A DNA stretch of 64,000 nt from a virus, in UHGV virus genome UHGV-1342921, one strand, 5' to 3'. A model generated the notes under the pieces. It saw only the letters and a list, made by a program, of their open reading frames with translations, did no database searches and had not been told where the DNA came from. This document shows positions 23,934 to 40,422 of the stretch, one piece after another. How positions within the stretch are numbered: position 1 is the stretch's first letter; each line of letters starts with the position of its first letter. Made by a program: the position numbers and the translations under genes.

Positions 23934-25154
23934 TTGGCGAGCAAATACGAAGACTCGACATCCGCGATTCAGGTGATAGGTGGAATCATAAACCAGCCCG
24001 AGTTGCTGGAAGACACTGGAAAGTATTTTTTTAGGGCCGAGGACTTCACATCAGAGCTGCATAGGGTTGTGTTCTCGGCAATCGGCACAATCTATGCGAA
24101 CGGCGGAACCAAAGTGACGGCCAAGGCAGTCGACGACGTTCTATCGACGTACCCCGAGGCATATGCGACCTACAAGGCGTCAAGGGGCAACGAGTGGTTT
24201 GCCAAGGTACAGGCTGAATGCGACCTCGACAACTTCGACTTGTATTACAATAGGCTCAAGAAGATGACGTTGCTTCGAGAGTACGACAACGCTGGTATAG
24301 ACGTGTCGTTCATTCTTGATATGGACGAGCTTGATGCAAAGAAACGGCAAAAACAATGGCAAGAGTTCGACAATATGAGCGCGAACGACATTGCGGACGA
24401 TATTGAAAACAAAATGTCAAAGATCAAGTCTACTTTTGTGGACAACCTAGACAAGAACACAAAACTTGTAAGTGATGGTTTGAGCACCTTGTTCAGTAAG
24501 TTGAGGAACGAGCCAGAGTTCGGCGTTCCGTTGTACGGACCTTTCATAAACACGGTGACGATGGGTGCAAGATTGACGAAGTTTTATTTGAGAAGCGCAC
24601 CTACTGGTGTTGGTAAAACTCGCATGATGATAGCCGACGTTTGCAACATCGCGTGCGACGAGATTTACGATTCCAGGATCGGTGCATGGAAAAAGAACGG
24701 TGAAAGCTTGCCGTGTCTGTACATCTCTACAGAGCTTGAAATGTCAGAGATTCAGACAATGTGCCTTGCGTTCTTGAGCAATGTCGAGGAGAACAAGATT
24801 CTCGGTGCGGAGAAGATGACTTTCGATGAGATCGACAGGGTAGAGCATGCGCTTGAGGTTCTTGAGAGAGCACCTTTGTTCATCGACATTATCTGTGACT
24901 TCTCACTCAAGGATATTGAGAACAGCATCAGGAAGAACCATAGGGAAAACAAGGTGATGTATGTCTTCTATGACTATATCATGACAACCATGAAGATTCT
25001 TGAAGAGATCACTGCGAAGTCGAAGGGTGTAAACCTCCGCGAGGACAGCATTCTGTTCATGATTAGCGTGAAGCTCAAGGATTTGGCTAATGAGCTGGGG
25101 ATATTCGTTCTTACCTCAACACAACTCAATGGTAGACTTTCTACTGCCAATTAA
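23934..25154 (+). CDS. dnaB: DnaB-like replicative helicase, exon 1 (N-terminal domain plus Walker A/B RecA-like core up to the helicase QLN motif)
   Basis: RSAPTGVGKTRMMIADV (Walker A), YVFYDYIMTTM (Walker B region), LKDLANELGIFVLTSTQLNGRLSTAN (H3/H4 region). The frame terminates at a TAA immediately after the predicted 5' splice site. Confidence 0.75.
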   Translation: MASKYEDSTSAIQVIGGIINQPELLEDTGKYFFRAEDFTSELHRVVFSAIGTIYANGGTKVTAKAVDDVLSTYPEAYATYKASRGNEWFAKVQAECDLDNFDLYYNRLKKMTLLREYDNAGIDVSFILDMDELDAKKRQKQWQEFDNMSANDIADDIENKMSKIKSTFVDNLDKNTKLVSDGLSTLFSKLRNEPEFGVPLYGPFINTVTMGARLTKFYLRSAPTGVGKTRMMIADVCNIACDEIYDSRIGAWKKNGESLPCLYISTELEMSEIQTMCLAFLSNVEENKILGAEKMTFDEIDRVEHALEVLERAPLFIDIICDFSLKDIENSIRKNHRENKVMYVFYDYIMTTMKILEEITAKSKGVNLREDSILFMISVKLKDLANELGIFVLTSTQLNGRLSTAN

Positions 25155-26228
25155 ATTCCTTATCCTTTTACCAGAGGGGTAAACGCTTCGTATAAAGTGT
25201 TTGCTAACGGGGAAGACTAAACGATAGTTATAAAAACTTCTTTTGAGAAGAACTATCGCATGTTAATCCCGTGTGATACCGCTTCTTCTCTCTTCAAGAG
25301 AGGAGATTGATTATTTTGCCTGGCAACTCTAAAATTTGTGGAATCTACAGAATCAAGAATGAATTAAACGGAAAGGTTTATATTGGGCAAAGTAAGAGAA
25401 TCTTTGGCCGATGGAACGAACATCTCCGTTCTTCTTTTCCTGAAAAATGGGCTGTAGAGACAAAGCGTGACCAAGATTTACCGCTTCATCGTTCAATAAG
25501 GAAATATGGAATAGAGAATTTTTCTTTTACTATCCTGGAAATATGTTCTCCAGAAGAGCTTAATGACAAGGAAAAAGAGTATATCAAGAAATATGAGTCA
25601 GACTTGCGTGACAAAGGATACAACCTTGCTAGTGGCGGACAAGACTCTTTTGCGTTAGCTGGTGAGCGCCATAGCCAAGCAAAACTCACACAACATCAAG
25701 TTGATGAAATAATTGATATGCTGTCTCAAGGTATTCCATTGGAAGAAATTAGCCAGAAATTTAAAGTCTCAAAGCCAGCAGTTTGCAATATAAACACAGG
25801 AAAGAATTGGCATTCTGATGATCGTCAGTATCCAATTCATAAATATGAGCCTCTTAAAGGAGAGCGAGCAGGTCAAGCTAGGCTGACAGACGAACAAGTA
25901 ATGGCTATTCGGAACGATTTTGCAGACGGAGATTTAACTCTTCAGCAAATAGCAGATAAACATGGAATCCAGTACGGAAATACAGTTTCTATCTGCTACG
26001 GATATTCTTGGACTCACCTGCCGGTGTTTAAAAAAGGGCAAAATAAAAAGCGGGGCCATGTATCGACTATCTCCGAGGCTGAAATGCGGGAGAGTAGGGC
26101 TACTAGTGGTAAGTAGCGAGGTTTTAGGAAACGAATCCTCTGAAAACCGAAATAGGATTCTATAGTATTTTACTATAGTAAGATATAGTCAGTGCTCTAG
26201 GGAAACCTAGAGACCCACGAGCTGGAAG
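25155..26228 (+). mobile_element. Group I intron (about 1.07 kb) interrupting the dnaB-like helicase gene; encodes a GIY-YIG homing endonuclease
   Basis: Exon 1 ends in U with an in-frame stop at the intron start. Conserved group I S element AAGATATAGTCAGTGC at 26180-26195, followed by a P9-type GAAA hairpin (CTCTAGGgaaaCCTAGAG). Omega-G at 26228. The joined exons restore the DnaB H4 motif (QLNGRLSTAN-TDPIPDQNLLRGSKSI versus DnaB QLNRSLEQRADKRPVNSDLRESGSI). Confidence 0.7.
25307..26116 (+). CDS. GIY-YIG homing endonuclease (I-TevI-like) encoded within the dnaB intron, with C-terminal NUMOD/HTH-like DNA-binding repeats
   Basis: ICGIYRIKNELNGKVYIGQS (GIY...YIG), R-x(3)-H, KYGIENF, N at the catalytic position. 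Repeated AKLTQHQVDEI and ARLTDEQVMAI helix-turn-helix-like modules. The start is ambiguous (TTG at 25307 or 25316). Confidence 0.75.
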   Translation: MIILPGNSKICGIYRIKNELNGKVYIGQSKRIFGRWNEHLRSSFPEKWAVETKRDQDLPLHRSIRKYGIENFSFTILEICSPEELNDKEKEYIKKYESDLRDKGYNLASGGQDSFALAGERHSQAKLTQHQVDEIIDMLSQGIPLEEISQKFKVSKPAVCNINTGKNWHSDDRQYPIHKYEPLKGERAGQARLTDEQVMAIRNDFADGDLTLQQIADKHGIQYGNTVSICYGYSWTHLPVFKKGQNKKRGHVSTISEAEMRESRATSGK

Positions 26229-26597
26229 ACAGACCCAATACCTGACCAAAACTTACTTCGAGGGAGTAAGAGTATTTGTGACAAGGTCGACTACGCCAGT
26301 ATTGCCCTCGACGTCACAGAAGACGACTTGGAGAGGATCCGCCCTATCTTGAGTAGCATTCCCGTTGTGCCGAACGTAAAGATGAGCGTATACAAGAACA
26401 GGCGCGGTGCATACAACAGGATCTTCCTTTGGATGTATGCGAACAAGGGAACCTGCCGCTACGAGACGATGTTCGCCACTGATTTCAACTACCACCCCAT
26501 AGACCTTAAAGAGACCGAACTGATTGTAAAGAGGGACGACACAGAGGAAGAGAAAGAGCCTGTTATCCTAGACGGTGGTGATGACCTTGAGTTTTGA
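26229..26597 (+). CDS. dnaB: DnaB-like helicase, exon 2 (C-terminal H4 motif through the end)
   Basis: TDPIPDQNLLRGSKSICDKVDYASIALDV aligns with DnaB ...DLRESGSIEQDADVV. KNRRGAYNRIFLWMYANKGTCRYETMF aligns with the DnaB C-terminus KQRNGPTGTVKLAF...TRF. Confidence 0.65.
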   Translation, partial: TDPIPDQNLLRGSKSICDKVDYASIALDVTEDDLERIRPILSSIPVVPNVKMSVYKNRRGAYNRIFLWMYANKGTCRYETMFATDFNYHPIDLKETELIVKRDDTEEEKEPVILDGGDDLEF

Positions 26598-32262: not shown

Positions 32263-34749
32263 CCTTCGATTAGACTATCATTGTCATAGTTCATTGTCGA
32301 ATATCCGCTTACTTTGACTCGATCAATACTCTCGAAGATCTAACCAAACGAGCTGTCGAATTAGGTCTCCCTGGCATTGCGATTACTGAACACGAATGCC
32401 TTGGTAACTCTATTGATATAGAAATCCTTCAAGAAAAAATTCGACAAGAGCATCCTAGTTTTAAGATTGTTCATGGCAACGAAATCTACCTTACAGACGA
32501 TCGGTCTATGGGGCAAAAATACTATCATTTTATTTTGTTAGCTCTTGACGAGGTTGGTTTCCACATGATGTCCGAGCTGTCGTCTACCGCCTGGCTGAAC
32601 GGGTATTTCGACCGAGGACTCATGCGCGTGCCGACTTTGAAGTCAGACGTCGAGGACGTAATCAAGCGTTACGGGCAAGGCCACATCTACGCAAGCCAGG
32701 CTTGTCTTGGGTCGGAGTTAAGCACTTATGTCCTGAAAATGCACGACTGCCAGGAGAAGGGTGACAAAGAAGGTCGCAAGCACTGGCACGACGAGATCGT
32801 CAAGTTTGTGAGCTGGTGCACGAACACGTTCGGCAAGGACAACTTCTGCTTTGAGATTCAGCCGTCAAGGTCGCACGACCAGTTGATTCTCAATAACATC
32901 ATGCCGTCCATCGCAAAGGCGTTCAAACTGCCGATGTGCATTACGTGCGACGCCCATTACTTGACAAAGGAAGACGCCCCGATTCATAAGGCGTTCCTGA
33001 ACTCCAAGCAAGGCGATCGAGAGGTTGACGAGTTCTATTCTGCGACGTGGTTGCAGTCGGAGGATGAGATTCTTGAGCACCTTGAAGGCACTCCCGTCGA
33101 TTATGAGCAATGTTGCAAAGACAGCATGGCAATCTTTGATAGGGTGCAGGACTTCACCTTGAGGAAGCCACAAGAGGTGCCTGAAGCTCCCGTGCCGTTC
33201 AAGCCCAAGCGACATGTGGAATGTTCTAAATATCCCATCTTGTCGAAGCTGTATGAGTCTGACAGCGAGCAGGAAAGGTTCTGGGTAAACGAGTGCATCG
33301 GCCAACTGAAGAAACGAGGGCTGTATAACGACCAATACGTTTCAAGACTTGAAGAAGAAGCCGACGTTATGGATTATATCGGGCAGAAGCTCAACACCTG
33401 CATCTTCGCCTACTCACTGTTCATGCGCCACTATATCGACCTGATTTGGAACTGTGGCTCAACGGTTGGTGTCGGTCGTGGATCAGCTGGTGGCGGTTTA
33501 TCTCACTGGTTGCTTGGCATCACCGGCACAGACCCTATTATTAGTGGTAGCCATTTTTGGAGGTTTCTTAATAAAGAACGTGTCGAACTGCCTGATATTG
33601 ATATTGACGTGTGCCCATCCAAGCGAGAAGCTGTCTTCGAAGAGACACGCAAGGAGACTGGAGAGCTTGGTTGCGTGCACGTGTGCACCTATGGAACATT
33701 AACAACAAAGGCAACTATCAAGCTGGCTGGGCGAGGATACCGTTCCAAAGAGTACCCAAACGGCATCCCTCTTGAAGAGACTGAATACATCTCCTCTCTT
33801 GTGCCCTCCGAACGAGGATTTTTATGGACACTTAAGGACGTCATAAACGGCAATCCTGACAAGGGACGAAAGGCATCTGTGCAATTCAATGCAGAGATTG
33901 AGAAGTACCCTGGTCTCAAAGAGATTCTGTTCAAGATTGAAGGTCTTGTAGTTCAAGCAGGCATCCACGCAAGCGGTGTGATCTACCCGCCCAAGGAGGA
34001 CTATTACCGTTATGGACCTTTCATGAAGGCCAAGAACGGCACCATCATCACGCAGTATTCCCTGCACATGGCAGAAGCGGCAGGTGCCACCAAGATTGAC
34101 TGGCTCGTCACAGAAGTCCAAGAGGTCATCACCCAGTGCATCGAGGAGCTTCAGCAGGCTGGGTACATCGAGAAAGGCTTAACCCTGCGCGAGGCTTATG
34201 ACAAGTACGTCAGCCCTGATGCGATTCCTCTTGACGACCCTGACACTTGGGACGCTGTAGACCGAGCAGATGTCCTCAAGCTATTCCAGCTCGACTCTAT
34301 GATCGGTCGTCAAGGTGCAAGGCTCATCAAGCCTCGTTCAATCGAGGAGCTGACGGCTGTCAACGCATTGATTCGACTGATGGCAGACGACGGTGAGGAG
34401 CGCCCAATGGACAGGTACGTCCGTCACAAGGCGCATCCGGAAGAGTGGGAGAAGGAACTTGACGAGTACGGCCTGTCAGACGAGGAGAAGACTGTCCTAC
34501 ACAAGCATTTCGACTCAAGCTACGGCGTCTGCTACGCACAAGAGCAGATGATGATGGCATTGATGGACCCAGGCATTTGTGGGTTTGACTTCAAAGCCAG
34601 TAACCAGGCAAGAAAAATCGTGGCGAAGAAAAAGTTCGATCAGATTGAAAGCTTGCATAAGCAGATTGTTGAGAGTGCCGTTTCACCTGCTATGGCAAAG
34701 TATGTGTGGGACGTTGTCGTTAAACCTTCGTTAGGATACAGCTTCAACT
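32249..34749 (+). CDS. dnaE: DNA polymerase III alpha subunit (DnaE-type), exon 1. Translation needs a +1 frameshift at CTT TGA C (32312-32318); the PHP domain and polymerase core follow
   Basis: ATG at 32249 with a GAGGGAGGGAAGG RBS gives MTTTNLRLDYHCHSSLSNIRLL then TGA. The +1 frame continues DSINTLEDLTKRAVELGLPGIAITEHE...KIVHGNEIYL (PHP motifs), then ...GIHASGVIY..., KIDWLVTEV, ...SLGYSF. The ORF-track start at 32508 is an internal Met. Confidence 0.7.
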
Positions 34750-35036
34750 AGAGGAGCCTTTTACCGGTGACGGTAATAGCAAAGCTACTTAACTGCGGGA
34801 ACTTCTTTAGAGCCTATAACTACCAACCGTGCGTGGCGACATACATGGGGCAGAGGGTAACGCCCGAGATATGGTAACAAGGTTATAGGATTAGAAAATC
34901 CGCAACGCCACCTCTGGCTGTTAGACAGAGGAACGCCCAGAGACTACCACGTAGCCTTCTCTACAAGAGAAGATGGTATAGTCCAGACCGCAACACATAA
35001 GTGGCTGGGGAGACCCAGTGCGGTATTGCTCAAACG
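34750..35036 (+). mobile_element. ORF-less group I intron (about 290 nt) in dnaE; the boundaries are approximate
   Basis: The Pol III alpha alignment breaks between ...GYSFN and (F)HGYSYSIIGYQCAWLATHYP (canonical [27 protein letters not shown]). In-frame stops lie on both sides. The intervening sequence has a P-like AACTGCGGGAAC, a Q-like AAATCCGCAACG and an S-like AGATGGTATAGTCC element. Omega-G at 35036. Confidence 0.55.
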
Positions 35037-36346
35037 TTCACGGATATAGCTACTCAATCATCGGCTACCAGTGCGCATGGCTTGCAACACACTACCCGAA
35101 GGTGTTTTGGAACACTGCATGCCTTCGAGTGGACTCGGGCGTTGAAGACGATGCAACGACAAGTTATGACAAGATTTCAAAGGCGGTCGGCAACATTCTC
35201 AACGCAGGCATCAAAGTGTTGCCGATTGACATCAACAAGTCGGGGTACATGTTTGAGCCAGACGAGAAGACACAGTCGATTCTTTGCGGTCTTAAAGCGT
35301 TGATCGGCATCAATGGCGACACTGTTCAGCAAATCATCGAAAACAGGCCTTACAGTTCGTTCGATGACTTCCGAGAGAAGGTGCCGCTGAACAAGACGGC
35401 GATGATTTCACTCATCAAGGCTCACGCATTTGACTGCTTTGACGTCAGATACAACGTCATGGTTCAGTACATCACCGAGCAGAGCGAGCCCAAGTCCAAG
35501 CTGACGATGGCTAACCTGCAAGGTCTTATTGACAGGAGCATGATTCCGGCAGACTATCAGTTGCAGATCAGGACGTTCGTTTTCAACAAGTCCTTGCGTG
35601 CCAACTGCAAATTCAAGGAATGGTACACCCTTGAGGGCAGATACTATCGTTTCTATGAGAAGTTCTTCGACATAGACGAGCTTGAGAGCGTCGGCGGCAA
35701 GTTCTGCATCTCACAAAAGAAGTGGCAGAAGATGTATACAAAGATGATGGAGCCTGTGAAGAAGTACATCACCGACAACCAAAAGGCCCTGCTTGAACAG
35801 TTCAACCTCACGTTGTTCAACGAGCAATGGAACAAGTACGCATCGGGCACTCGCGGTTCGTGGGACATGAGTTCCCTGGGCTTCTATTCCGCCAAGCACG
35901 AGCTGGACGGCATAGAGTACGACAAGTACGGCCTGTCGAAGTTCTCAAGCCTGCCCGAGGAGCCTGTAGAAGCCGAGTCGCGTGGCAAGTTCAAGATTTA
36001 CAATCTCACGAGGATCTGCGGCACGGTTGTGGCGAAAGACGACACTCGTTCGACCTTCACTCTCCTCACCCCGGATTCAGGCTCCGTCGACGTCAAGCTT
36101 CCCAGGGAGATTTACGCCCACTACAACAGGAAGATCGTGCTGGAGAACTCTGGCTCGAAGATTTCCGAGGACGGGTGGTTCACAAGGGGCACGCTTCTCA
36201 TGGCATGCGGTTATCGGCAGGGAAACATGTTCAGGCTAAAGAGGTACAAGAACACGTCAAGCTTGCTGTTGTATAACATGGCGATAACCAAGAGTGGTAG
36301 GATAATCTGCACCGGAAGCCGCCTCGGTGACGAAGACGAGGTATAA
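35037..36346 (+). CDS. dnaE: DNA polymerase III alpha subunit, exon 2 (C-terminal HhH/OB region)
   Basis: HGYSYSIIGYQCAWLATHYPKVFW...AGIKVLPIDINKSGYMFEP...LCGLKALIGINGDTVQQIIENRPYSSFDDFREKV...LIKAHAFDCF matches the DnaE C-terminal region. Confidence 0.7.
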
Positions 36347-37087: not shown

Positions 37088-38389
37088 ATGAAAGTTAAAA
37101 AAAGGAACGGCAATCTCGAAAAGTACGACTTAAAGAAGATCAGACACGCGATTGAGCGTGCGTTTGAGGACATCTACGGTCAAGAGACGTACACAAATGA
37201 CATGCAGGTCAACATCAGCGGATTAGCTTCAGCGACAGAAGTCCAAATTTGCAAGGTTGGGGTCGCAGATGTAGAGGATATCCAAGATGTGGAGGATATC
37301 CAAGACGCTGTTGAAGACGTGTTGATGCTCAATGGATATTATGAGGTGGCGAAGGAGTATATTCGATACAGGTATCTCCACGAGCTACGTCGAAATGAGC
37401 GAGAGCAAGAGAAGTTTTATGACAGCATCGGTGAAAAGCTCAAAGCTACCAACGTTCAGAACCAGAATGCGAATGTCGATGAGAAGTCCTTCGGTGGTAG
37501 AATGGGTGAGGCCTGTTCTGAACTAACCCGTGATTACGCTTTAAAAAACTGTTTATCCGAAATGGCAAGGAACAACCATCTTAATAACGAGATTTACGAA
37601 CACGACCTTGATCATTACCCCACAGGAGACCACAACTGCCTGTCTATTCCATTTGACAAGCTTTTGGCTAATGGCTTCAACACAAGACAAACCGATGTAA
37701 GACCTGCAAATTCCGTCAATACGGCGTTTCAATTGGTTGCCGTCATTTTTCAGCTACAGAGTCTTATGCAGTTTGGTGGGGTAAGTGCGACGCATCTAGA
37801 TTGGACAATGGTTCCATATGTACGAAAGTCCTTCTTAAAGCATTTTAAAGACGGAATGCTTTGGTGGTGTAAGAGCTGTGACAACAGCGATAAATATGCT
37901 AAATTCCTCCGTGAAGTAGAAGACGGCTTGTGGCCCGACACACTCTTTATTGAAGACGAGAGATACAAAGTCCATGATATGGCTTATCAATACGCGGTCG
38001 AAATGACCAAGAAAGAGACTTATCAAGCGGTAGAAGGCATGTACCACAACCTAAATACACTACAAAGTCGAAGCGGGAACCAGCTTCCCTTTACATCAAC
38101 CAATTTCGGCACATGCACGCTTCCTGAAGGTCGTCTTGTCATAAAAGCAATGCTAGAAACTTCGATTCGCGGTCTTGGCAAGCTTCATAAAACCAGTATT
38201 TTTCCCTGCACTATTTTCCAGTGTATGAAGGGTGTCAATCGAGCTCCTGGAGATCCAAATTACGACCTGTTCCAGCTTGCTTTAAAATCAACCTCTCAAA
38301 GGCTTTACCCCAACTATGCTAACGTAGATTGGTCTGGCAACGCTGGCTACGATAGAAACGATCCAAAGACCTACTTCAGCACCATGGGT
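37088..38389 (+). CDS. nrdD: Anaerobic ribonucleoside-triphosphate reductase NrdD, exon 1 (ATP-cone plus catalytic barrel up to the ...YFSTMG active-site loop)
   Basis: N-terminal ATP-cone VKKRNGNLEKYDLKKIRHAIERA. Exon 1 ends ...TMG and exon 2 begins CRTANG..., which reconstitutes the conserved NrdD MGCR motif (E. coli SPMGCRSFLG). Confidence 0.8.
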
Positions 38390-39483
38390 AAGCGTAAACT
38401 ATAGCTCATGTAAAACCTCCTTAACCTCGCCAGAGGGTGTGGGTTCTTAAACTCGCTAACGGTTAGGGCTCTTATGAGTTGAGACCGTGCTAAACACTCT
38501 AAAAATGTTGTTCTTTTCTGACTCTCTTGAACAAAAAAGGGGTACATACAAGAGAAAGCAGTTAGAAAGGACCAACATGTATATCTACAAAGTAACAAAC
38601 AGTTTGAACGGTAAATTTTATATTGGGCAAACGGTTCGAACTCCAGAATCCAGATGGGAACGTCATAAAAATGATGCCCTAGGAGATCGTCACCTTGATA
38701 CACATTTTGCGAGAGCTATTAGAAAATATGGCCCTGAAAATTTTACCATTGAAACAATTGACACTGCATCCTCTCAAGAAGAACTGACGAAGAAAGAACA
38801 TGATTGGATAGTTAAGACTCGGGCGGTAGAGAAAGGTTATAACGAAACTTCTGCTATCGAAAAATGTGGTGGTAACACCTACGAGTCAAAAACCAAAGAA
38901 GAACTTGCTTGTATTGGTGAGAAAATTAGAAAAACTAAACTTGGTGGCAACAATCCTCACTCAACAAAGGTAAAATGTAAAGACACTACCACGGGCGAAG
39001 AATTTCATTTTAATTCTCAAGTAGAAATGCAAAAGTTCTTTGGCGCTCCTAATCACCTGTTTATTTCACGACGTTGTCTTGGACAAGTAAAAAGTTTATA
39101 CAAAAAACGCTGGCTAATCTCTTACGAAGAAGGAGAGATTATTGCGAAGAACCATATTGGAAAAGGTTCAGAAAGAGCAACCGGCGTTTACGTAAAAGAT
39201 TTACAAACAGGGGAAAGTAAGTCTTTTCCCAGCTATTCCGATGCAGAGCGATATTTTGGACAGAAGGAAAGAGCTTTTAGTAGCAAAGCCTACAAAAGAG
39301 GCAATTCTTTTGTTTATAAAAGTAGATATGAAATTACAAAAATTTTAGAGTGAAAGTGTATCGACTATCCCTGATGAATGTAAGGGAGTAGGGCTAGAGA
39401 TAGGCACTAGCTCGAAACGGGAGGCTACCGTCTTATGAAGGTAGAAGATATAGTCAGTGCAGATGGTGACATCTGATAACACG
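38390..39483 (+). mobile_element. Group I intron (about 1.09 kb) in nrdD encoding a GIY-YIG homing endonuclease
   Basis: Exon 1 ends in U (ggU at 38389). S element AAGATATAGTCAGTGC at 39448-39463, about 20 nt before the omega-G at 39483. Exon frames are continuous across the junction. Core sequence shared with the dnaB intron. Confidence 0.8.
38577..39353 (+). CDS. GIY-YIG homing endonuclease (I-TevI/I-TevII-like) within the nrdD intron
   Basis: MYIYKVTNSLNGKFYIGQT (GIY...YIG), R-x(3)-H, IRKYGPENF, conserved E/N. GAAAGGA RBS upstream of the ATG at 38577. Confidence 0.8.
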   Translation: MYIYKVTNSLNGKFYIGQTVRTPESRWERHKNDALGDRHLDTHFARAIRKYGPENFTIETIDTASSQEELTKKEHDWIVKTRAVEKGYNETSAIEKCGGNTYESKTKEELACIGEKIRKTKLGGNNPHSTKVKCKDTTTGEEFHFNSQVEMQKFFGAPNHLFISRRCLGQVKSLYKKRWLISYEEGEIIAKNHIGKGSERATGVYVKDLQTGESKSFPSYSDAERYFGQKERAFSSKAYKRGNSFVYKSRYEITKILE

Positions 39484-40422
39484 TGTAGGACCGCCAATGG
39501 ATACGACATCAATGGCATGGCCCAGACAAAAGACGGACGAGGGAACATCTGTCCTGTCACTATAATTATGCCGACTCTTGCTATGGAAGCCGACCGAGAT
39601 GTAGAGAAGTTCATGGAACTTCTTGACAAAAAGATTCACGAAGCCAAAGACATGCTTTTGGAACGTTTTGAGTACATCTGCTCACAGTCTCCTGAATCGG
39701 GCAAGTTCATGTACGAGAACGGCACTATGGAGGGATATATTCCGGAAGAGGGTATCCGTAGCGCTCTCAAGCATGGTACGTTGGCGCTTGGCCAGTTAGG
39801 ACTAGCGGAAACGCTTCAACTGCTTATCGGAACAGACCAGACAACAGACAAAGGAATGGAATTGGCCAAGCGTATCGAGTCTTTGTTCCGCAAGCGCTGT
39901 GATGAGTTTAAGCACAAGTACAAGCTTAATTTTGGAGTTTATTACACACCAGCAGAGAATCTATGCTTTAAAGCTCTTAAAAAGTTTAGAGCTAAATATG
40001 GCGTTATTCCTAACGTGTCAGACAAAGATTTCTTTACTAACTCTATTCATTGTCCTGTATGGAGCGATTTAACAGTTATGGAAAAGATTGACATTGAGTC
40101 TCAACTCACAGGATATTCCAACGCGGGCTGCATCGTTTACGCCGAATTGCCATCAACCACTAAGAACAACCTTGAAGCACTTGAGACTATTGTAAATTAT
40201 GCAATGGATAAAGATATCCCTTATTTTGCCATCAACGTGCCGAACGACACTTGCCTTGACTGCGGATATTGCGACGAGTTCAACGACCATTGCCCAATGT
40301 GCGGAAGCACTCATATTCAACAGCTTCGTAGAGTGACAGGCTACTTAACTGGGAACTATACCACCGCGTTCAATCTCGGCAAGCAAGACGAGGTTCACCA
40401 TAGAGCCAAGAATGCAAGATAA
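39484..40422 (+). CDS. nrdD: NrdD exon 2 (C-terminal half with the zinc ribbon and glycyl-radical motif)
   Basis: ...YYTPAENLCFKA, SDKDFFTNSIHCPV, CLDCGYC...CPMCGS (zinc ribbon), and RRVTGYLTGN...FNLGKQDEVHHR (glycyl radical RVxGY plus C-terminal tail), colinear with E. coli NrdD. Confidence 0.8.
   Translation, partial: CRTANGYDINGMAQTKDGRGNICPVTIIMPTLAMEADRDVEKFMELLDKKIHEAKDMLLERFEYICSQSPESGKFMYENGTMEGYIPEEGIRSALKHGTLALGQLGLAETLQLLIGTDQTTDKGMELAKRIESLFRKRCDEFKHKYKLNFGVYYTPAENLCFKALKKFRAKYGVIPNVSDKDFFTNSIHCPVWSDLTVMEKIDIESQLTGYSNAGCIVYAELPSTTKNNLEALETIVNYAMDKDIPYFAINVPNDTCLDCGYCDEFNDHCPMCGSTHIQQLRRVTGYLTGNYTTAFNLGKQDEVHHRAKNAR

Follow-up and report, generated by a model that had tools for sequence, protein, structure and literature searches.

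A probable mobile group I intron with a GIY-YIG endonuclease frame in the DnaB-like helicase gene of a metagenomic phage

The viral genome UHGV-1342921 was analysed here as a single stretch of 64,000 nucleotides (nt), referred to as the window. On its plus strand lies a gene for a DnaB-like replicative helicase that is interrupted between the QLN motif and the LRGSK/arginine-finger segment by an insert carrying a GIY-YIG homing endonuclease frame. We are confident, short of certain, that this insert is a mobile group I intron occupying positions 25134-26219. The host phage has a genome of roughly 140 kilobases (kb) and is known from metagenomes only. It has no close cultured relative, as a megablast search of the locus against isolate phages returned no match.

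The split helicase gene and its junctions

The open reading frame (ORF) at 23934-25154 encodes the 406 N-terminal residues of the helicase and, as a first-pass annotation of this DNA had stated, reads ...QLNGRLSTAN followed by TAA. Its product matches the Pfam domains DnaB_C (E 4.7e-16) and DnaB N-terminal (E 2.6e-5). The helicase frame reopens at 26211 (RPTSWKTDPIPDQNLLRGSKSICDK..., also read as RPTSWKTDPIPDQNLLRGSKS...), in agreement with the distance of about 1.07 kb given in that annotation, and inspection of the ORF found no start codon upstream of the TTG at 26328. When the two exons are joined as listed in Table 1, the spliced coding sequence is 1578 nt long, stays in frame and encodes 525 amino acids, reading ...TSTQLNG^SWKTDPIPDQNLLRGSKS... 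across the junction (here and below, ^ marks a splice site). The ligated exons are predicted to read ...CUCAAUGGU^AGCUGGAAG..., that is CAAUGGU^AGCUGG, and the predicted intronless QLNG-SWK junction sequence is CAACTCAATGGTAGCTGGAAGACAGAC. The peptide RLSTAN and its stop are thus read-through translation into the intron, and SWK is part of exon 2.

The joined protein aligns as one helicase. Exon 1 alone covers positions 9-180 of the 255-position DnaB_C profile, and the spliced protein covers 9-244 without a break, scoring 66.7 bits for DnaB_C and 24.1 bits for DnaB (cut-off 23). Invariant columns of the helicase alignment include the G-GK- of GVGKT, DYI, Q-N and LRG. In tblastn searches the fused protein aligned as a single piece over the junction to intact helicases of isolate phages at 33-37% identity, among them SPbeta YorI and those of Geobacillus phage GR1 and Enterococcus phages VRE9, H1 and 9183. 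With a 150-residue query centred on the junction, the alignment ran through unbroken in 113 of 114 isolate-phage records. Because the fused protein matches intact helicases and exon 2 has no start before 26328, the gene is split with no other route to its expression.

A scan of IMG/VR for relatives of the locus returned four contigs, of which three (L005, L006 and L007) were informative. The helicases of L005 and L006 share 99% and 95% amino-acid identity, respectively, with the spliced product and have its length of 525 residues, as does the intact helicase of L007 at 44% identity. L005 carries a 1086-nt insert at the identical site, called site 1 below, and a second, ORF-less insert of 300 nt located 39 nt downstream. 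In L006 site 1 is empty and reads ...STQTNAGFKTDPIPDQALLRG (QTNAGFKTDPIPDQALLRG; allele sequence ACTAACGCAGGATTCAAAACAGAT), and the downstream site holds an insert of 1065 nt whose GIY-YIG ORF is a different one. L007 is uninterrupted and reads QLNGGYQDATVYDQNLLRG.

The splice junctions were placed by comparison. Eleven residues separate QLNG or QTNA from LLRG in the uninterrupted L006 and L007 sequences, and three joins keep that spacing in the window: 25133/26219, 25139/26225 and 25142/26228. Only the first yields a U.G wobble at the splice site of P1 (UGGUAG/CUGCCA), with U25133 opposite G25146 of the internal guide sequence GCCA (25146-25149), and also ends in the tail of the family. Family members finish in ...A(C/U)G^ about 7-8 nt past P9, here ACCCACG^. 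Since only this join combines the spacing with the U.G pair and the 3' tail, we place the intron at 25134-26219, with its 5' splice site after the U of GGU in QLNG and G26219 as its last base. The P1 helix also arises unprompted in the minimum-free-energy fold, and the sister intron begins AGAC directly after GGU.

P1 covaries with the exon. The same codon holds an orthologous intron in L064 (QLNG^DWKTED, P1 UGGU/GCCA) and in L013 (QTNA^SAKTDP), where P1 is UGCU/GGCA, a compensatory change relative to UGGU/GCCA. At other helicase sites occupied by the family, P1 reads UGUU/GACA, UAUU/GAUA or GAGGU/GCCUU.

A group I intron with other junctions is improbable. Two of the alternatives, 25139^25140 with 26225^26226 (QLNGRL-KTDP) and 25142^25143 with 26228^26229 (QLNGRLS-TDP), likewise keep the frame, the 11-residue spacing, a U before the intron and a G at its end, and a K precedes TDPIP in L006. 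However, no guide sequence pairs ...GACUU or ...UUUCU into a U.G, sister introns open with AGAC, AAAC or AAGA right after GGU or GCU and close 7-8 nt past P9 as described, and relatives show a small plus an aromatic residue (GF, GY, DW) where the join at 25133/26219 gives SW. The third alternative, 25154/26228, corresponds to the intron of 25155-26228 in the first-pass annotation, which held that its join restores the spacing of the DnaB H4 motif. This could not be sustained. That join gives 14 residues from QLNG to LLRG, three more than in uninterrupted relatives, and leaves A as the last exon base. Both ends of the supported intron lie upstream of those in the annotation, the 5' end by 21 nt and the 3' end by 9 nt. 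A 5' splice site following AAU (25151) and a pairing of AGACUUUCU with GGGGAAGACU were both considered and dropped, as the length of the protein was set by the relatives and GGGGAA is part of P4.

Table 1. Positions of the helicase exons, the intron and its structural elements in the window
Feature	Position	Strand	Sequence and basis
Helicase exon 1, DnaB-like	23934..25133	+	Ends ...TSTQLNG, final base U of GGU; ORF, Pfam, relatives
P1	25130..25149	+	Exon UGGU + intron AG (25130-25135) pairs with CUGCCA (25144-25149); minimum-free-energy (MFE) fold, covariation
Probable group I intron, IA2-like, with P7.1 and P7.2	25134..26219	+	1086 nt; covariation, sub-threshold Rfam match, MFE, L005 copy
UAA ending the exon-1 read-through within the intron	25152..25154	+	Just 3' of the guide sequence
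P3 5' strand	25159..25163	+	CUUAU, pairs with AUAGG 26152-26156; 5/8 pairs of helix 1 compensatory
P3.1 hairpin (our label)	25164..25177	+	CCUUU-UACC-AGAGG; 4/5 pairs compensatory
P3.2 hairpin (our label)	25181..25202	+	AAACGCUU / AAGUGUUU; MFE
P4-P5 region	25207..25272	+	P4 ACGGGG 25207-25212 / UCCCGU 25267-25272; encloses P5, P5a, P5b
P5	25215..25217 / 25262..25264	+	GAC / GUU; 3/3 pairs compensatory; MFE
P6 and P6a 5' strands	25273..25284	+	GUG 25273-25275, CCGCUU 25279-25284
Predicted 10-base-pair hairpin over Shine-Dalgarno GAGGAG (25300-25305)	25284..25306	+	Predicted fold; z-score not significant
Putative GIY-YIG homing endonuclease ORF	25316..26116	+	Pfam, I-TevI, PHROG 7168; program-called ORF starts at 25307
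P7 5' strand	26065..26070	+	GACUAU, pairs with AUAGUC 26185-26190; invariant, 100% paired
P7.1 hairpin	26071..26092	+	CUCC / GGAG; 4/5 pairs compensatory
P7.2 hairpin	26099..26117	+	GCUACU / AGUAGC; 3/6 pairs compensatory; MFE
P7.2a extra hairpin (our label)	26118..26140	+	GAGGUUU / AAUCCUC; loop UAGGAAACG near-invariant; 4/7 compensatory, 97.7% paired
P8 hairpin	26160..26178	+	CUAUAGUA-UUU-UACUAUAG; local Rfam match, MFE; relatives carry different hairpins here
J8/7 and P7 3' strand (S element)	26179..26190	+	UAAGAU AUAGUC; local Rfam match, 11-mer count
P9 hairpin, GAAA tetraloop	26195..26212	+	Local Rfam match, MFE
Terminal intron G (omega-G)	26219	+	Preceded by ACCCAC; agrees with the ...A(C/U)G^ ending of the family
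Helicase exon 2	26220..26597	+	SWKTDPIPDQNLLRGSKS... through the stop; first possible start TTG 26328

The ribozyme fold

The P3/P7 pseudoknot and the P3-P8 and P4-P6 domains of a group I ribozyme core are present in the insert. The P3 5' strand lies directly 3' of P1, and two hairpins, P3.1 and P3.2, stand between P3 and J3/4. Relatives have a hairpin of different sequence at the P3.2 position. P3.1 has been described as an optional pairing of group I introns (PMC3873408). P6 and P6a are closed by CAU (26057-26059) and AAGCGG (26048-26053), respectively, with compensatory change in 3/3 pairs of helix 4 and 100% pairing. P7.1 and P7.2 lie between P7 and the P3 3' strand, both with compensatory changes, which makes the intron IA2-like under the Michel-Westhof classes. 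The S element and the GAAA-capped P9-like hairpin that the first-pass annotation had pointed out were both found, the former with AAGATATAGTCAGTGC at 26180-26195. Two copies of the 11-mer AAGATATAGTC are present in the window, where 0.02 would be expected, and each is within an intron.

Because the Rfam group I model RF00028 misses its gathering score at this locus, related introns were collected from IMG/VR by core patterns, and at least 119 stretches matched one such pattern. The covariation alignment comprised 25 distinct introns aligned with MAFFT after removal of ORFs and variable hairpin tips, with the structure written on the window sequence. P8, P9 and hairpin P3.2 were left out of the pair count, as they shift by 1-2 columns in this alignment. 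In the proposed structure 91.7% of cells were paired, compared with 42-50% when partners were slid by 1-3 columns and 79.4% in shuffles. Compensatory change was found in 26 of 49 pairs, and the covariation score was 0.365 against 0.07-0.09 for slid partners. None of 500 shuffles equalled the observed values; with further pair types the number was 2. Covariation is seen in P3, P5, P6, P7.1, P7.2 and both extra hairpins. The invariance of P4 and P7 makes them uninformative in this respect.

Thermodynamic prediction gave a similar picture. A construct lacking the ORF folded with z = -5.0 and recovered P1, the long-range UCCU/AGGA pairing of P3, P4-P5-P6, P7.1, P7.2, P8 and P9. A P3 register of AAU(U)CCU/AGGAUU with bulges was replaced by an ungapped register that suits the whole family. 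On the ORF-less sister intron of L005, RF00028 scored 29.5 bits and aligned P1, P4-P6, P7 and P9, as well as J8/7 and P7'. The fold as a whole rests on covariation and thermodynamics, and the intron probably self-splices in a guanosine-dependent manner.

The apical 15 nt of P7.2a (UUUUAGGAAACGAAG) are nearly invariant across the 25 introns on a freely covarying stem (alignment columns 206-228), which suggests a conserved tertiary contact or a protein-binding site. This hairpin is absent from shorter family members, such as L046 (at 7744), L104 and L018 (at 1502).

The putative endonuclease, probable homing and competing explanations

The endonuclease ORF is placed in the P6a loop and runs on into the ribozyme core, so that the P7 5' strand sits within its 3' end. 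Its product scores 39.8 bits for the Pfam GIY-YIG domain PF01541 (cut-off 22.6; E 5.8e-10). Among solved structures, phmmer matched only the catalytic domain of I-TevI (1mk0 and 1ln0, E ~1e-6), so the I-TevI-like character proposed in the first-pass annotation is upheld. The GIY, YIG, R, H, E and N of the product align with I-TevI positions 6, 17, 27, 31, 75 and 90. Residues 9-216 match PHROG 7168, 'homing endonuclease' (E 1.3e-35). The protein is presumably an active and specific endonuclease. The hairpin predicted over its ribosome-binding site may place its translation under control.

In a comparison of 41 intron ORFs from the family, those of the two other site-1 introns, in L013 (43% identity, E 1e-49) and L064 (38%, E 9e-48), came closest to this one; the others reach at most 33% identity over comparable lengths. 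The endonuclease lineage therefore follows its target site, as a site-specific homing enzyme would be expected to.

The three close alleles differ in occupancy. The window has an intron at site 1 only, L006 at site 2 only, and L005 at both. Site 2 lies after LLRG, 39 nt (13 codons) past site 1, and its intron spans 6332-6631 in L005, where the two introns flank a 39-nt exon, and 5246-6310 in L006, where its GIY-YIG ORF encodes 234 amino acids. The window is empty there and reads CGAGGG^AGT, which lacks the splice-site U. Comparison of the site-1 intron of the window with that of L005 shows 14 differences over 1086 positions. Every one falls in the ORF part, leaving the ribozyme of about 350 nt unchanged, and the altered codons comprise nine synonymous and four nonsynonymous cases, a distribution that speaks for selection. 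Once spliced, the helicase DNA of the window shares 86% of its positions with that of L006. Exon identity drops to 0.59-0.70 in the approximately 100 nt surrounding the site; it is 0.70 over the 60 nt that precede site 1, 0.59 from one site to the other and 0.68 over the 60 nt that follow site 2. L005 tracks the window upstream of site 1 (0.98) and diverges from it at and past site 2, where its immediate flanks resemble those of L006, the other carrier of the site-2 intron. The flanks go with the intron that a genome carries, and such a mosaic is the pattern that co-conversion during homing produces. The uneven occurrence of the intron in near-identical phages and the divergence of the exon DNA beside it point to homing. 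The intron-free alleles lack the splice-site U (GCA^GGA at site 1 in L006, GGG^AGU at site 2 in the window) and probably represent targets that have diverged and may be resistant, not exact deletions.

A mechanism can be proposed on this basis. The helicase gene would be transcribed through the intron and the RNA would adopt the P1-P9 core. An external guanosine would attack after the U of the P1 U.G pair (25133^25134), and the freed exon 1 would then attack after the terminal G (26219^26220), joining ...QLNG to SWKTDPIPDQNLLRGSKS... in the mRNA for the 525-residue helicase. By analogy with I-TevI, the endonuclease would cut intronless helicase alleles near the insertion site, and repair from an intron-bearing copy in a mixed infection would transfer the intron, along with part of the neighbouring exon sequence, into the cut genome. 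The central proposal of the first-pass annotation, a group I intron with a GIY-YIG ORF in this helicase, is in this way supported by covariation, P1, the continuous DnaB_C match, the empty site of L006 and the I-TevI match.

Several observations weigh against this interpretation. At its gathering score of 50 bits, RF00028 finds no intron in the window or in L005-L007. The covariance-model check put forward in the first-pass annotation succeeded only locally, with a match of 25.3 bits (E 5e-4) that aligns P8, J8/7, P7' and P9 and stays below the gathering score; the model does not cover P7.1, P7.2 or the ORF. The sequences in the covariation alignment were anchor-trimmed, and the structure was derived in part from those same sequences. 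In the window, P3 consists of only 5 contiguous pairs and P7.2a carries a U.U mismatch. The likely start of the endonuclease is a TTG (25316), 9 nt past GGAG, and its C-terminal half gives only sub-threshold helix-turn-helix matches (Sigma70_r4, HTH_23 and HTH_7, E 7e-4 to 3e-3). The last ~22 codons overlap P6', P7, P7.1 and half of P7.2, with the TAG stop (26114-26116) inside P7.2, and through this overlap endonuclease translation and intron folding could interfere with each other.

The sub-threshold Rfam score and the extension of the ORF into the ribozyme core are also what would favor a free-standing or decayed homing-endonuclease insertion that splits the helicase into two pieces or kills the gene, without splicing; free-standing GIY-YIG genes do adjoin helicase genes in some phages, such as YungSlug. 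We nevertheless regard this as very unlikely. Exon 2 has neither a start codon nor a ribosome-binding site before 26328, so the LRGSK segment would be lost, yet the helicase is otherwise strongly conserved. Every core helix is intact and compensated, and the window and L005 share one and the same ribozyme sequence, with all 14 differences confined to the ORF part. An intein or a group II intron is already refuted by stop codons at 25152 and 26208 in an insert that is out of frame and by the lack of any Hint, LAGLIDADG or reverse-transcriptase domain in Pfam searches, in addition to the group I type of the RNA core, even though inteins are generally known to be common in DnaB helicases and a Hint domain has been mentioned for the Twort helicase (PMC5526547).

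Related introns, known systems and significance

The intron family occupies at least four sites in the helicase gene: Walker A, the position before DYIHT, QLNG^ and LLRG^. The Walker A intron (APTGVG^KT) lies at about 6060-6240 of L013, and introns just before a Walker B-like DYIHT were seen in the related helicases of L012, L025, L046, L071 and L088. Same-family introns also occur at the DGxHI motif of a type II topoisomerase/gyrase B-like gene (L018, L028, L036 and L110; exon 2 reads ...DGAHIKNL), with three of them within about 3.7 kb in L018.

Two further genes of the window are split. A second candidate intron, of the same family and at ~38405-39479, interrupts an nrdD-like gene whose ORF at 37088-38404 comes to a stop and whose frame resumes in the ORF at 39457-40422. 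It contains a GIY-YIG ORF (38487/38577-39353; Pfam E 2.2e-8) and a core with CGACTAT at 39362, AAGATATAGTC at 39445-39455 and the tail ...AACACG^, and it has a sub-threshold Rfam score of 23.3 bits. A third candidate, an ORF-less group I intron at ~34735-35010 (RF00028, 27.3 bits, sub-threshold), splits a DNA polymerase III alpha-like gene in GYSFN...H, the ORF at 32508-34751 ending ...SLGYSFN* and the frame resuming in the ORF at 35018-36346. Its core (CAGAGACTACC...GGTATAGTCC) is unlike that of the helicase intron family. The window additionally holds a cluster of six tRNA genes at 500-1741 on the minus strand (Rfam 45-64 bits) and a sub-threshold RAGATH-36 match at 748-870 (34.9 bits versus 70).

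When the ORF-less intron construct was compared with isolate phages by blastn, only short core matches were obtained, in Enterococcus phages EF1/EF5 and in Lak megaphages, and no annotated helicase intron was found. In EF5 (L132; MF001361.1, 125518-130614) a related core comes after a GIY-YIG ORF that the record labels 'hypothetical protein'. This locus has a split DNA polymerase III alpha region and also an HNH 'phage intron' endonuclease, and its introns are apparently unannotated. The pair 'endonuclease' and 'DNA helicase' of Bacillus phage YungSlug was examined as a candidate and rejected, as the endonuclease is free-standing downstream of an intact helicase and not part of an intron.

The element is of a kind already known, the classical mobile group I intron of phages as exemplified by T4 td with I-TevI, and multi-intron phages and nearby insertion sites within one gene are known too. 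The T4 td intron, a self-splicing group IA2 intron, lies in a phage DNA-metabolism gene, as does the helicase intron, which probably self-splices too. Both encode a GIY-YIG endonuclease in a peripheral loop, which is P6a in td as well, and the catalytic domain here aligns with that of I-TevI. In both, the exon frame terminates shortly inside the intron and a hairpin, predicted in our case, can cover the ribosome-binding site of the endonuclease; such a hairpin is familiar from T4. The host genes differ, thymidylate synthase in T4 and a DnaB-like helicase here. Unlike td, the helicase intron has two hairpins between P3 and P4 in place of a P2 before P3, an extra P7.2a, and an ORF whose tail overlaps P7 to P7.2. 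Unlike I-TevI, its endonuclease shows weak helix-turn-helix matches at the C terminus, where Pfam searches detected no zinc finger. The nrdD intron of the window, a separate element, resembles the T4 nrdD (sunY) intron in that it bears a GIY-YIG ORF within an anaerobic ribonucleotide reductase gene.

Staphylococcus phage Twort-like introns (orf142, nrdE) are comparable in that Firmicutes phages carry many group I introns in genes of replication and nucleotide metabolism. The Twort ribozyme probably has the layout CGACUAU...GUAGGG...CGAAAU-P3'-P8-AUAUAGUC in common with the helicase intron. The helicase has been reported among the intron-bearing genes of the Staphylococcus myophages Romulus, Remus, K and G1 (PMC5526547), which makes helicase introns less unusual than the first-pass annotation had implied in calling them uncommon. 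In contrast to those cases, the helicase clade considered here (SPbeta YorI, Enterococcus, Geobacillus; 35-37% identity) is uninterrupted in the 113 of 114 isolate-phage records noted above. DNA polymerase introns of the SPO1/Bastille type likewise fill several close sites of one gene with related introns, and MCM inteins provide another example of neighbouring insertion sites (PMC10643990). Relative to such systems, the window has only the QLNG^ intron.

What is new is limited to the insertion site in this helicase clade, the peripheral architecture, the abundance in metagenomes and the presence of at least four sites in one gene. It is possible, although we hold it only tentatively and as somewhat less probable than its opposite, that a subfamily of phage group I introns, undescribed and very abundant and marked by the P3-P4 hairpin pair and the P7.2a loop UUUUAGGAAACGAAG, has colonised at least four helicase sites, two of them 39 nt apart, each with its own GIY-YIG lineage. 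The H3-H4 segment would then be a standing battleground between competing homing endonucleases and resistant alleles and not the place of a single chance insertion.

If the intron is overlooked, the helicase enters the annotation in two parts, one a truncated gene and the other an orphan fragment, and the same applies to nrdD and DNA polymerase III alpha in the window. The single group I model of Rfam misses ORF-bearing, IA2-like phage introns, a family that is common in phage metagenomes (at least the 119 stretches collected here). The endonuclease is a candidate for a new site-specific GIY-YIG nuclease. The locus is a probable new site of homing within a replicative helicase gene, and the window, L006 and L005 form a natural set of alleles for the study of neighbouring homing endonucleases.

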